The notes beneath the pieces were generated by a model. It ran no database searches. It saw only the letters and a program-made list of their open reading frames with translations, and was not told where the DNA came from. From sequence record OZ346228.1: DNA of 64,000 bases; one strand, 5' to 3'. The stretch is from a phage. Every line of letters starts with the position of its first letter. Positions within the stretch are counted from its first letter, which is position 1. A program made the position numbers and the translations under genes. Below, piece after piece: positions 5,194 through 62,897 of the stretch.

Positions 5194-5276
5194 CAAATAC
5201 CTATTGTAATTTACAGAAGGGGATGCTAAAATAGTGTCTCCTTCTATGTTGTTCAAATAAAATCGGAGATTCCATA

Positions 5277-5642
5277 ATGGAACAAATGAACGATCAAGCG
5301 TCGGTTGCGATGAACGAGCAAGAACAACCTCAAGAATTTTTCTTAGGGTTAAGTAAAGATCAAGTGTCTCTTCTGCTAGTGCTTTCTTCTTTCATGGGAA
5401 GACTTCAGGAGCTCACACAACAGCCAGAGGCTGAACAATTATTCCAAGCTTTGCGTGAAGAAGAAAAATATCGTCGTTTGGACTATGCCTTAGGTTGGGT
5501 AGCTCAACAACGAGATATGCTGATGGCCCTCTCTGGGACCACAAGTTTTGCAATGGGGCTGTTGGCTCAAGTTCAGGACAAATTAATTCAAGCAGGGTTT
5601 GCACACACGGCAAACACTAACGAAGAACAAGGAGACAAATAA
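5277..5642 (+). CDS. hypothetical protein
   Basis: RBS aatcggagat; TAATG overlap with next gene. Confidence 0.6.
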   Translation: MEQMNDQASVAMNEQEQPQEFFLGLSKDQVSLLLVLSSFMGRLQELTQQPEAEQLFQALREEEKYRRLDYALGWVAQQRDMLMALSGTTSFAMGLLAQVQDKLIQAGFAHTANTNEEQGDK

Positions 5643-6868
5643 TGAGCGTTATTCAACAATTCGCTAACCCGATGAATCCGCGTGAAACTGTTTTACTGGC
5701 TCACGGCATGATTAAACGTGTCAGCATCAAGCCTATCAAAGGTGCTGATCCTACAACAGGTATTAAAACCACTGTGTGGCAAGGTAAGAAAATTGAATCC
5801 AGCCACACCATCTCTTTACTGATTTCTGAACTGGATTCCTCTGATAACCTGCTTCAAGGTGGTGAAGAAGTTTGGATCAGCATGGGTGATAAGCTGCTTA
5901 AACCTGGTCATCAAGACTCTGTCTCTGTTAAAATTGATGACAAGTGGGAAACCGTAACGCCGGGATGGATCGTAAATATTCCTTTGAAGGCAAACGAGCA
6001 TAACGGTAAGACCTATTACAAAGGCTCACTGGCTAAGATGGTCAAGCTGGGTGCAGGAGAGGCTCCAGCAGCGACTCAGCAGCAAAAACAGCAACAAGGT
6101 GCACAATCACAAGGCCAGAAGCAGAAACCTCAGCAGAATGCCAATCAGGACGTTTTACGCATCTATGGTGATGTGACTCAGATTGTTGGCAACGTGGTTA
6201 CTGTTAATGACCACAAGATTGGCGAAGGTGCTATGGTTGTAACTGATGAGCAGCTTAAAGACCTGGTGGTAGGTGGTCGTGTTGCAGCCATTGTTGACAA
6301 AGACACCGGAAACATTATCAGTGGTTTCAAGGCCTATCCTCCTAAGGCAGAGAACGGCACTCAAGGCTCTGGTGGCAAGCGTAAATCCTCTTACGACCCT
6401 ATCGGTGTGGAAACGGGGCATAGCATCAATGCGTTGCAGATCATCCTGGATCGCGGGTTTAAGGTAGACGACCCACTGGGCGTGGCTAAAACACTGCACG
6501 TAGTCACCATTGAGCTTAAGAAAGAGTATGCTCAAGCCACCAACCGAGCTGAAGATGAAGTAGGTGCCAGTGTCGGTAATGCGGTGTTGAACGCTTGTCG
6601 CCGTATTGACAAGAAAACGAAAGTTGATGATTTTGCAGTGGCAATTACTGCAGAAGCAAAAGATGTCTTGACTAATCTAGCTGAGCCGTTGTACGATTGG
6701 ATCAAGAACGGTGCTGAGTCCACTGACCATCAAGAACCTCAGGCTGCCAAACAGGAAGCAGCTCCACAGCAAAACACTGTAGACGCTCCTCCTGTAAATG
6801 ATGCGGAAGATGACCCAATGGATCAGAATCCAGCACAGTACGTCTTTGATGATGACATCCCATTTTAA
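5642..6868 (+). CDS. SSB-like protein with Gln-rich linker and acidic C-terminal tip ...DDDIPF
   Basis: C-terminus VFDDDIPF identical to the bacterial SSB C-terminal tip; Q-rich low-complexity linker (QQQKQQQGAQSQGQKQKPQQNANQ). Confidence 0.55.
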   Translation: MSVIQQFANPMNPRETVLLAHGMIKRVSIKPIKGADPTTGIKTTVWQGKKIESSHTISLLISELDSSDNLLQGGEEVWISMGDKLLKPGHQDSVSVKIDDKWETVTPGWIVNIPLKANEHNGKTYYKGSLAKMVKLGAGEAPAATQQQKQQQGAQSQGQKQKPQQNANQDVLRIYGDVTQIVGNVVTVNDHKIGEGAMVVTDEQLKDLVVGGRVAAIVDKDTGNIISGFKAYPPKAENGTQGSGGKRKSSYDPIGVETGHSINALQIILDRGFKVDDPLGVAKTLHVVTIELKKEYAQATNRAEDEVGASVGNAVLNACRRIDKKTKVDDFAVAITAEAKDVLTNLAEPLYDWIKNGAESTDHQEPQAAKQEAAPQQNTVDAPPVNDAEDDPMDQNPAQYVFDDDIPF

Positions 6869-6930
6869 CATTTAGTTAACATAGCCCTGCCAGAAAGGGT
6901 GGGGTATTTTTGTATAAGGAGATCTAAAAA

Positions 6931-7709: not shown

Positions 7710-8135
7710 ATGATCTATGAAATGCCAAAACTGATTCGTGACGATGCCCAAAACGCCCACACCTTTATCATGGGCAAGCGCATGGATATTATTTGTCATA
7801 AAGATTTCTGGGAAGGTAGTTACTTCACAGAATATTTTGGTAAACTGGATAATGGTCTGCTGATCCAGTTCTACACCGATGCGGAAAACAATATCTGCTG
7901 GGAGTTCGAAACTGAAGATATCCATAAACTTTTCACCTTCCTAGGTATTAAGGTTGAGGCCAAGTTTGAAGAAGGCGAGTGCGACGATTGTGGATTCTAC
8001 GAGGTAACAGATTTCTATCTCCCAAGTGGTGAGAACCTTTACTATGAAAGCCACTTCGGCAACTCAAATATGCCACAAGGTTGGGATGAGTTTTTTGAAA
8101 TTGCGGAAGAGGAGCTGACATACCGTGATTATTGA
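7710..8135 (+). CDS. hypothetical protein
   Basis: 141 aa ORF in same-strand array. Confidence 0.5.
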   Translation: MIYEMPKLIRDDAQNAHTFIMGKRMDIICHKDFWEGSYFTEYFGKLDNGLLIQFYTDAENNICWEFETEDIHKLFTFLGIKVEAKFEEGECDDCGFYEVTDFYLPSGENLYYESHFGNSNMPQGWDEFFEIAEEELTYRDY

Positions 8136-8583
8136 TACTGTAGCGGGAGATTTAATCTCCCTTTTTAAGAGCGGTGCTGGTCACCTGATCCACGGTTGTA
8201 ACTGCTTTCATACAATGGGTGCAGGCATAGCGAAAGATATTGCCCGTGAGTTCCCTCAAGCACTGGCAGCCGACAAAGAGACTGCCTATGGTAATCTGGA
8301 CAAGCTGGGTATGTTTTCTTGTTGGGAGCATTTTGCCAAGAACAGGGTCGTATATGGAATCAACCTGTATACCCAGTTCTACCCAGGGCCCAATGCTGAA
8401 TACTTCTCAATAATGAAAGGTTTTGAGCGAGTCAACGAGGTATTCAAAGGTGTGTCATTGCCGTTCTACATTCCTAAAATTGGATGCGGTATTGGCGGTC
8501 TAAAGTGGGAACATGTAGAAGATGTAATTAATCTTGCAACCACAGATATTGATGTGGTTGTAGTAGAGTACAAAAAGTGTTGA
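8125..8583 (+). CDS. macro-domain-like protein (ADP-ribose binding/processing family), tentative
   Basis: GAGHLIHGCNCFHTMGAGIAKDI and IGCGIGGL resemble macro-domain nucleotide-binding loops; GTG start overlapping upstream stop. Confidence 0.45.
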   Translation: MIIDTVAGDLISLFKSGAGHLIHGCNCFHTMGAGIAKDIAREFPQALAADKETAYGNLDKLGMFSCWEHFAKNRVVYGINLYTQFYPGPNAEYFSIMKGFERVNEVFKGVSLPFYIPKIGCGIGGLKWEHVEDVINLATTDIDVVVVEYKKC

Positions 8584-62084: not shown

Positions 62085-62159
62085 GCCCTGTTAGCTTAGT
62101 GGATAAAGCAGCGGCCTTCTAAGCCGTTGACACTGGTTCGAGTCCAGTACGGGGTGCCA
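62085..62159 (+). tRNA. tRNA-Arg (anticodon TCT)
   Basis: Manual fold: D stem GCTT/AAGC, anticodon loop CTTCTAA, T loop TTCGAGT, 3' CCA encoded; acceptor stem has two G-U pairs. Confidence 0.7.
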
Positions 62160-62163
62160 AATT

Positions 62164-62250
62164 GGGGAGTTATCCCGTAGAGGTAGCGGTGTAGACTGTA
62201 AATCTATTGTCATTGCGACTCGGGTGGTTCGACTCCACCACTCCCCACCA
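62164..62250 (+). tRNA. tRNA-Tyr (anticodon GTA), long variable arm
   Basis: Acceptor GGGGAGT/ACTCCCC, anticodon loop CTGTAAA, T loop TTCGACT, CCA encoded. Confidence 0.8.
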
Positions 62251-62364
62251 AATTTATATTTTTAGATGCATAAATAATACAGATAATGGCATTGATATTT
62301 ATCGTCGTTTATACTAGTCACTAACTGCTCGAAAATCAGTGTCATTATCAGTATTATTTATAAA

Positions 62365-62455
62365 GGAGGGTAGGGAGCAATGGTGCTCAATCGGTCTTGA
62401 AAACCGTCCCGTTGAGGATGACTCGATGATGGTTCGATTCCATTACTCTCCGCCA
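62365..62455 (+). tRNA. tRNA-Ser (anticodon TGA), long variable arm
   Basis: Acceptor GGAGGGT/ACTCTCC, anticodon loop CTTGAAA, T loop TTCGATT, CCA encoded. Confidence 0.7.
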
Positions 62456-62553
62456 CATTGTTGACCTTGTAATTAAGCGAAAGTCGGAAGCAGAACCGGA
62501 TTATCAAATGTTACAGTCGTCATCGCCGACTAGCAACATGGTCAACATACTGA

Positions 62554-62652
62554 GCTAGGTAAGCCCTTTGGCAAGGGCGAGGATTTTTAATCCTGAAAAT
62601 AGACGAGGTAGTCGTTGAATACATAGGTGGTTCGATTCCATCACCTAGCACC
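62554..62652 (+). tRNA. atypical tRNA-like gene; anticodon loop TTTTTAA (Lys-TTT-like), about 28 nt extra between anticodon and T arms; may be a pseudo-tRNA
   Basis: Acceptor GCTAGGT/ACCTAGC, D arm GCCC-TTTGGCAA-GGGC, T loop TTCGATT; variable region far longer than class I; CCA not fully encoded. Confidence 0.35.
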
Positions 62653-62657
62653 TTTTT

Positions 62658-62733
62658 GCTGATGTAGCACAATCGGTAGTGCAATTGATTTGTAATCAAT
62701 AGGTTGTAGGTTCAAGTCCTGCCATCAGCACCA
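62658..62733 (+). tRNA. tRNA-Thr (anticodon TGT)
   Basis: Acceptor GCTGATG/CATCAGC, anticodon stem-loop ATTGA-TTTGTAA-TCAAT, T loop TTCAAGT, CCA encoded. Confidence 0.8.
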
Positions 62734-62734
62734 A

Positions 62735-62809
62735 GGCCCTGTAGCTGGAAGGTTCAAGCAAGCGACTCATAATCGCCAGACGGTGGTTCAATTCCACCCA
62801 GGGCCACCA
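62735..62809 (+). tRNA. tRNA-Met/Ile2-type (anticodon CAT)
   Basis: Acceptor GGCCCTG/CAGGGCC, anticodon loop CTCATAA, T loop TTCAATT, CCA encoded. Confidence 0.8.
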
Positions 62810-62820
62810 AATAGTAAATA

Positions 62821-62897
62821 CTCCGCGTAGCTCAGCTTGGTAGAGCGCCTGATTTGGGATCAGGAGGTCGAGTGTTCGAATCACTCCGTGGAGACCA
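62821..62897 (+). tRNA. tRNA-Pro (anticodon TGG)
   Basis: C1-G72 acceptor, D stem GCTC/GAGC, anticodon stem-loop CCTGA-TTTGGGA-TCAGG, T loop TTCGAAT, CCA encoded. Confidence 0.8.

Follow-up and report, generated by a model that had tools for sequence, protein, structure and literature searches.

Why does a bacteriophage protein end in the same six residues as SSB, Escherichia coli's single-stranded DNA-binding protein? The host SSB tip peptide organizes more than a dozen replication and repair enzymes. The phage protein is encoded by an open reading frame (ORF) with an ATG start and a TAA stop at positions 5642..6868 (plus strand) of a 64,000-nucleotide stretch of phage DNA (sequence record OZ346228.1), the whole of which is referred to here as the window. 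At 408 amino acids it is over twice the length of E. coli SSB, which bears out an earlier remark that it is far larger than a canonical SSB. It is an orthologue of Bas52_0087 (QXV84166.1), and both the protein and its SSB-like reading are already in the literature under that name. We consider that this ORF probably encodes the replicative single-stranded DNA (ssDNA)-binding protein of an rV5-like phage and represents a phage-specific, non-canonical SSB family. Within this reading, the ORF, the conservation of the tip, the predicted fold, the synteny and the 99% identity to Bas52_0087 have direct support; a need for the protein in DRT10 triggering has been shown in published work on that orthologue.

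The C-terminal tip and acidic tail

The C-terminus of the SSB-like protein reads ...NPAQYVFDDDIPF and is followed directly by TAA. As the preliminary description of this locus had stated, the protein ends in VFDDDIPF, and the last six residues (DDDIPF, residues 403-408; 6848..6865, plus strand) are identical to the E. coli SSB tip. A six-frame translation of the 64-kb window contains this hexapeptide a single time (6848-6865); its chance expectation is roughly 0.002 per window and lower still immediately before a stop codon. When E. coli SSB was compared with the window by tblastn, the sole match was the tail of the SSB-like protein (E 0.002). The tip terminates an acidic tail (residues 357-408; 6710..6865, plus strand) with a net charge of -12, rich in Pro, Gln and Ala (7 Q) and predicted to be disordered from its composition and from predicted local distance difference test (pLDDT) values below 50 for residues 363-401. 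The combination found in canonical SSBs, a disordered linker followed by an acidic C-terminal DDDIPF-COOH, is present.

The end of the protein is also conserved across its family. P407 and F408 are invariant in 47 homologues, and the near-invariant positions across 52 members (22% mean identity) are G22, T54, H55, G108, G259, G308, G312, D394, P407 and F408, the family tail ending in D-D-[DSE]-[IVL]-P-F. The collection of 174 family sequences contains some fragments and a small number of false positives; its members terminate in PF, PW or LF in 130 cases and in exactly DDDIPF in 42 of these. In several members from enterobacterial phages, the match to the end of E. coli SSB extends to 11-12 residues, (E)PPMDFDDDIPF, as seen in the short forms P0052-P0054 (phi92-type) and in phage nieznany. 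The codons of the tip vary synonymously between phages. These comparisons indicate that the tip is under selection.

Predicted domain architecture

An AlphaFold2 model of the 408-amino acid protein, built on the 47 homologues, contains a confident all-beta domain at residues 1-140 (5642..6061, plus strand), which is predicted to form an ssDNA-binding module. The preliminary description had regarded the N-terminal domain as not obviously an OB fold; structure prediction overturns this, giving an OB fold of the SSB/PriB/RPA type over these residues. A Gln-rich disordered linker, which the same description had placed before the tip, does exist but lies between domains 1 and 2, at residues 141-170 (6062..6151, plus strand; 13 Q of 30 residues, pLDDT 26-35). 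Its length differs among orthologues of 95-98% identity (4 residues fewer in P0002 and 13 fewer in P0005), and this variation fits a disordered spacer encoded by slippage-prone DNA.

The linker leads into a small five-stranded beta-barrel at residues 171-235 (6152..6346, plus strand), recognized from secondary structure and pLDDT values of 82-85, in which the strand order over the modeled span 171-232 is b1-b2-b3-short helix-b4-b5. This barrel may represent a second mini-OB in the model; not all family members have it, and it is absent from short forms of 270-310 amino acids. After a short disordered linker at residues 237-249 follows a four-helix bundle (residues 251-356; 6392..6709, plus strand), whose long helices span residues 253-355 and are succeeded by the disordered tail. 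The bundle holds D252 (6395-6397) and Y351 (6692-6694), the positions of DRT10-escape mutations discussed below, and carries the conserved motifs G-x-E-T-G-H-x-x-N and V-G-x-S-V-G-N-A-V-L-N-A-C. No specific relative of the four-helix bundle was found.

Foldseek searches against viral models returned family members (Erwinia phage Hena1 and others) together with weak matches to phage SSBs and DUF2815 proteins. Sequence searches were far less informative. Pfam gave only noise on the query (PIN_9 and DCX2, E ~0.1), with no PF00436 at E up to 1, and six unrelated single matches on 52 diverse members, with no PF00436 at E up to 0.01. Searches of PDB sequences with the protein, the N-domain profile and the helical-domain profile yielded spurious matches only, such as T4 lysozyme, D7 protein and sorting nexin. 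Alignment of the N-domain profile with an E. coli SSB-type OB profile by hhalign gave a probability of 0.3%, a weak negative, the SSB profile being thin (only three close sequences).

Distribution and diversity of the protein family

Over its full length (1-408), the SSB-like protein matches phrog_4477, a family of unknown function (E 1.7e-172). A word-indexed search recovered 56 homologues. When 1.84 billion representatives were searched exhaustively with a hidden Markov model of the N-domain, only 121 clusters emerged; the family is small. Nearly all members share a common plan that consists of an OB domain from residue 1, a low-complexity linker, an optional second barrel, a helical domain and a charged disordered tail, and some are short forms of 270-310 amino acids. 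Members from isolated phages are confined to rV5, phi92, phAPEC8, CR8 and KB57-type myoviruses. The short forms (270-300 amino acids) were considered as a counterpart of the N4 SSB and rejected, as tblastn with a short form finds just rV5, phi92, CR8 and KB57-type myoviruses.

At the DNA level, the ORF is 99.9% identical to that of Escherichia phage Murica and matches 116 phage records at >=92% identity, essentially all of them Vequintavirus (rV5-like). Most database records name it a "hypothetical protein"; in phage JLBYU08 it is labeled "putative single-stranded DNA-binding protein." Sixteen records designated "Campylobacter phage" (MG0656xx, e.g., MG065654 and MG065666), which give C. jejuni as the host, share as much as 99.9% identity with the SSB-like gene, and their host labels are probably wrong or the isolates contaminated.

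At least four sequence flavors of the helical domain can be distinguished across the family (GxETGHAxN...VGHAVLNA, KDDLPIRLGNA...LGARLGQ, VVAGNARTAA...VGVSVGQA and DWAAKDAGAAASASIDKA), and two small-residue motifs (G259 and G308/G312) are kept in all of them. This pattern suggests a conserved helix-packing or binding site in a domain that is diversifying fast, a diversification perhaps driven by immune sensors such as DRT10.

Association with replication genes

The SSB-like gene lies among replication genes. In the same-strand gene order, a primase and a family A DNA polymerase (PF00476, DNA_pol_A, matched on the window ORF at 38-1261) are followed by about 10 small ORFs, a 121-amino acid ORF, the SSB-like gene, a macro-domain protein and others. 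Two remote metagenomic members, with 30-36% identity over 21-36% of the query, lie in comparable surroundings, one of them behind a Toprim primase and a polymerase and the other behind a DnaB-like helicase and a DNA_pol_A gene, each with a few small ORFs between. The association with a family A polymerase replisome is therefore conserved as far as these distant relatives.

The primase of JLBYU08, a phage 97-99% identical to the one studied here, is encoded just upstream of the window start (L008 781-2859, minus strand; 693 amino acids). It ends in ...DPVPGFEDDETPF, an acidic tail (...GFEDDETPF) with an SSB-tip-like -PF end, so that an acidic Phe-terminated tail is common to the SSB-like protein and the primase of one replication module. 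No canonical SSB was detected in the window by tblastn and none is annotated in a further 50 kb of JLBYU08, with about 28 kb of presumed structural genes outside the scope of this search.

Relation to the DRT10 trigger Bas52_0087

A preprint of 30 April 2026 (bioRxiv 10.64898/2026.04.29.721553) describes Bas52_0087 as the "SSB-like" trigger of the DRT10 (UG17) reverse-transcriptase defense. Bas52 is Escherichia phage RudolfGeigy (BASEL Bas52), and its gene bas52_0087 encodes QXV84166.1. The window ORF is 97.8% identical to it in nucleotides and 99% in amino acids (402/408). The two proteins have equal length, the same tip, D252 and Y351, and the same predicted architecture, and differ in six substitutions only (e.g., A303T, V333A and V401S).

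According to that study, Bas52_0087 is required for DRT10 activation during Bas52 infection, and Bas52 escapes DRT10 through D252V or Y351C in this protein; plasmid-borne wild-type Bas52_0087 strengthens restriction, whereas the mutants do not (10.64898/2026.04.29.721553). Expressed alone, Bas52_0087 leaves the viability of E. coli unaffected and is insufficient to trigger DRT10. DRT10 restricts Bas52 less strongly when SbcB (exonuclease I, ExoI) is overexpressed, and competition with SbcB is the authors' proposal (10.64898/2026.04.29.721553). That both escape mutations are missense fits an essential gene.

The preprint describes the protein as two OB folds, an "oligomerisation interface" and a disordered C-terminus with the SSB C-tip (10.64898/2026.04.29.721553). 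In contrast, our models put the escape positions in a separate four-helix bundle with no known relative, at one end of which D252 (start of helix 1) and Y351 (end of helix 4) lie together. At least 90% of homologues have kept D252. In these models the escape positions would define a surface on the helical bundle and not on an OB fold.

A homing-endonuclease cassette at the tip

Many orthologues do not end at the tip and extend 15 residues past it (...DDIPF-APVGLQYGKSRIHAL); the largest 90% cluster, P0001 (533 member sequences), carries this extension. In phage DrSchubert, the extra DNA consists of the 15 codons and a gene for a 207-amino acid homing endonuclease, positioned precisely where, in the window allele, the Phe codon meets the stop codon, with the endonuclease ATG located within the extension in a different reading frame. 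The hairpin sequence found at 6884-6912 of the window also lies after the inserted endonuclease gene of DrSchubert, and the stop codon at 6866-6868 therefore represents an empty insertion site. The window allele is accordingly the empty-site form (6865/6866), with a free tip.

Phage nieznany has the same arrangement, although its endonuclease shares only the 44-amino acid N-terminal CxxC...FYKH...DGHxNKCKEC module (57% identity) with that of DrSchubert. In phi92 the extension is kept and the endonuclease lost, leaving an 11-codon remnant. The same type of extension ends proteins of other kinds, namely the canonical SSBs of Salmonella phage epsilon34 (...PPMDFDDDIPFAPVTLPFPRHAIHAI) and Vibrio phage phiV039C, and a Klebsiella phage primase/helicase (...DDDTPFAPIGLQYAKHAIYVI). 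The sites of cassette or extension in the compared sequences are L002 2534-3176, L007 2025-2538, L006 2025-2072, L003 1525-1572, L004 1078-1125 and L005 2516-2563.

The extension looks selected when its sequences are compared: of its 45 nucleotides, phi92 and nieznany differ in 6, and each of these differences is synonymous in the frame of the SSB-like protein. A neutral scar is disfavored, since phi92 keeps the extension without the endonuclease and its changes relative to nieznany are all synonymous. The extension also does not fit the beta-clamp motif QL[SD]LF. Literature searches for "IPFAP" and for tip mimicry returned nothing relevant.

Recognition of the canonical SSB tip requires the free carboxylate of the terminal Phe; extended alleles would therefore either alter tip function or be processed. 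One possibility, which we put forward tentatively and hold to be rather doubtful, is that the SSB tip is a portable docking module targeted by endonucleases, in which free-standing homing endonucleases with the shared 44-amino acid N-terminal zinc finger insert directly after the Phe codon of DDDIPF-ending genes and the 15-amino acid extension (A-P-[IV]-G-L-Q-Y...), itself under purifying selection, internalizes the tip. If this is true, phage populations would carry an on/off or altered-specificity switch for the host SSB interactome, and the phage replisome (the SSB-like protein and the primase) would be organized around host-type tip docking.

A further mobile element lies elsewhere in the replication module. 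Relative to JLBYU08, the window carries a 528-bp insertion at 1376-1903 with an HNH-endonuclease-like ORF (1396-1902; weak HNH_3 match), located between the DNA_pol_A ORF at 38-1261 and a fragment at 2095-2451 that is annotated as "DNA polymerase" in JLBYU08. This is a second mobile-endonuclease polymorphism of the module.

Proposed function and alternative explanations

As a replicative SSB, the protein would use its N-terminal OB fold, perhaps aided by the small second barrel, to bind ssDNA at phage replication forks. The four-helix bundle would serve in self-association or partner contact, with D252 and Y351 marking its functional surface. The long acidic disordered tail would display DDDIPF as a docking peptide, for which the probable partners are those of the phage's own replisome, the family A polymerase and the primase ending in ...FEDDETPF. 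Because it is identical to the host tip, it would probably also bind host SSB-interacting proteins such as ExoI. DRT10 may detect the loading of the SSB-like protein on ssDNA or its interference with ExoI. The ssDNA binding, the oligomerization and all tip-partner interactions in this scheme are what we infer from the evidence above.

Several lines of evidence support the SSB reading. The modeled arrangement of an OB domain, a disordered linker and an acidic tip is that of bacterial SSBs; the tip appears selected; the gene belongs to a module of primase, family A polymerase and small ORFs in which no canonical SSB was found; the primase tail offers a parallel to T7; and Bas52_0087 is needed for DRT10, with an effect of SbcB dosage. 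Other observations weigh against it. No sequence-level link to any SSB family emerged from the Pfam, PDB profile or hhalign searches, the net charge of the N-domain is only +2, and nothing comparable to the helical domain is known from SSBs. In addition, the alignments of at least 16 of 60 sampled Vequintavirus records, including rV5, break off at the Phe codon, suggestive of the extended allele, which was directly verified only in DrSchubert. Since tip binding needs a free Phe carboxylate, the free tip cannot be essential in phages with extended alleles unless the extension is removed.

The preliminary description had proposed either a phage SSB or a decoy. The former is supported by the fold, the context and the published genetics, and a pure decoy is less likely. 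As a decoy or hijacker, the protein would mainly serve to display the host SSB tip in many copies and thereby sequester or redirect ExoI/SbcB, RecQ, RecJ, PriA, the chi subunit or UDG, protecting phage ssDNA ends or shutting down host replication and repair, with the OB domain as a scaffold or targeting device. The identity of the six tip residues with host SSB, reaching 11-12 residues in relatives, is more than an internal phage interaction seems to need, and an oligomerizing helical domain would render the tip multivalent; the weakening of DRT10 restriction by SbcB overexpression and the proposed competition with SbcB point in the same direction (10.64898/2026.04.29.721553). However, expression of Bas52_0087 alone is harmless to E. 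coli (10.64898/2026.04.29.721553), natural alleles with 15 residues after the tip are common, and the conserved synteny with polymerase and primase, the SSB-like OB fold and the lack of another SSB candidate speak for a replication role. We regard the decoy explanation as unlikely, while noting that the protein could act both as a decoy and as an SSB.

A recombination or repair mediator with an OB domain plus a helical domain, similar to RecO or to DdrB/DdrC-type proteins, would anneal or protect ssDNA, load a recombinase or restart forks, and its tip would join the networks of host SSB partners. Only the generic OB match favors such a role, and the combination of features of the RecO type (an OB and a helical domain with a zinc finger, and binding rather than carrying the SSB tip) was not found. 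We hold this explanation to be improbable. It is very improbable that the tip is a functionless passenger that homing endonucleases have deposited or maintained at the gene's 3' end through co-conversion of flanking DNA. The cassette does sit exactly at the tip in many relatives and has the same edge on canonical SSBs and on a primase/helicase, but 121 clusters, with a mean identity of about 22%, preserve the tip, most of them lacking the extension, and the tip codons vary synonymously while the peptide is kept. Moreover, the tip-coding DNA of unrelated carriers is only 36-77% identical and bears no trace of a recent transfer, on which ground a spread of the tip by recent co-conversion was rejected.

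Transcription unit and neighboring genes

A ribosome-binding site, AAGGAG, recognized by sequence inspection, lies 7 nt upstream of the ATG of the SSB-like gene (5629..5634, plus strand). The gene is translationally coupled, through a TAATG stop/start overlap, to an upstream ORF of 121 amino acids that looks helical (5277..5642, plus strand). This two-gene unit (5277-5642 and 5642-6868) is bracketed by two hairpins. The one at its 5' side (5215..5245, plus strand; 5215-5245) is terminator-like, with a 14-pair stem identified by a consensus scan; the other resembles an intrinsic terminator and consists of GCCCTGCC-AGAAAG-GGTGGGGT followed by ATTTTTG (6884..6912, plus strand; hairpin 6884-6905).

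The 121-amino acid ORF belongs to phrog_7310, of unknown function, and had no match in a Pfam search; we found no support for the label "putative SSB" that it bears in JLBYU08. A small ORF also precedes the SSB-like gene in phi92 and nieznany, with no detectable homology between the 121-amino acid ORF and the ORF at the same position in those phages. The product of the 121-amino acid ORF may be a partner protein of the SSB-like protein. The small ORFs near the SSB-like gene are all assigned to PHROGs of unknown function.

Starting 1.3 kb downstream of the SSB-like gene, an ORF of 152 amino acids (8125-8583) has an N-terminal Macro-domain match (PF01661, E 1e-5). On this match, its product could be an ADP-ribose-processing enzyme, possibly with a counter-defense function. 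A cluster of seven tRNAs occupies 62085-62897 of the window, among them Arg-tct, Tyr-gta, Ser-tga, Thr-tgt, Met-cat and Pro-tgg. One call in the cluster (62554-62652) is 99 nt long with a four-base anticodon "atcc"; it could be spurious, come from a pseudogene, or represent a tRNA with an intron or one of a frameshift-suppressor-like kind.

Comparison with known systems and implications

The SSB-like protein has no detectable sequence homology to the OB domain of E. coli SSB (PF00436), and it differs from that protein in its additional parts, a beta-barrel and a four-helix bundle that separate the OB domain from the tail, and in possessing two disordered linkers where E. coli SSB has one. A parallel is offered by phage T7, where gp2.5 and gp4 have acidic F-terminated tails that both dock on the polymerase and compete. 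The likeness lies in a putative phage SSB with an acidic Phe-ended tail, a family A polymerase and a similarly tailed primase(-helicase). However, there is no sequence similarity to gp2.5, which lacks the extra domains, and the tail described here copies the host SSB tip and not the T7 type. In the structural comparison with gp2.5/DUF2815, Foldseek returned one weak match to a DUF2815 protein (E 9.5e-3) and a few matches to proteins labeled "phage ssDNA-binding domain," with no Pfam match. In HK620, the phage SSB uses its last six residues to recruit the phage recombinase Sak4 onto SSB-coated ssDNA, which likewise represents a phage SSB tail recruiting a phage-encoded partner, although that SSB is a distant member of the canonical family, forms a tetramer and ends in NDYPPF. 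No Sak4-like gene adjoins the SSB-like ORF.

Phage SSBs are recurrent targets of bacterial immune sensors, for example retron Eco8 and now DRT10. If the SSB-like protein binds ssDNA and its tip engages in the proposed interactions, this would explain how DRT10 senses infection. It would also mean that a large group of myoviruses of E. coli, Klebsiella, Cronobacter and Pectobacterium uses an SSB that standard annotation has overlooked (no Pfam family; PHROG "unknown function"), and that SSBs include a new architecture of OB, OB, helical bundle and tip. These phages would offer a natural system for asking whether a phage uses the host SSB interactome or copies its docking logic for its own replisome, with the endonuclease-borne 15-residue extension as a natural experiment on the same alternative.

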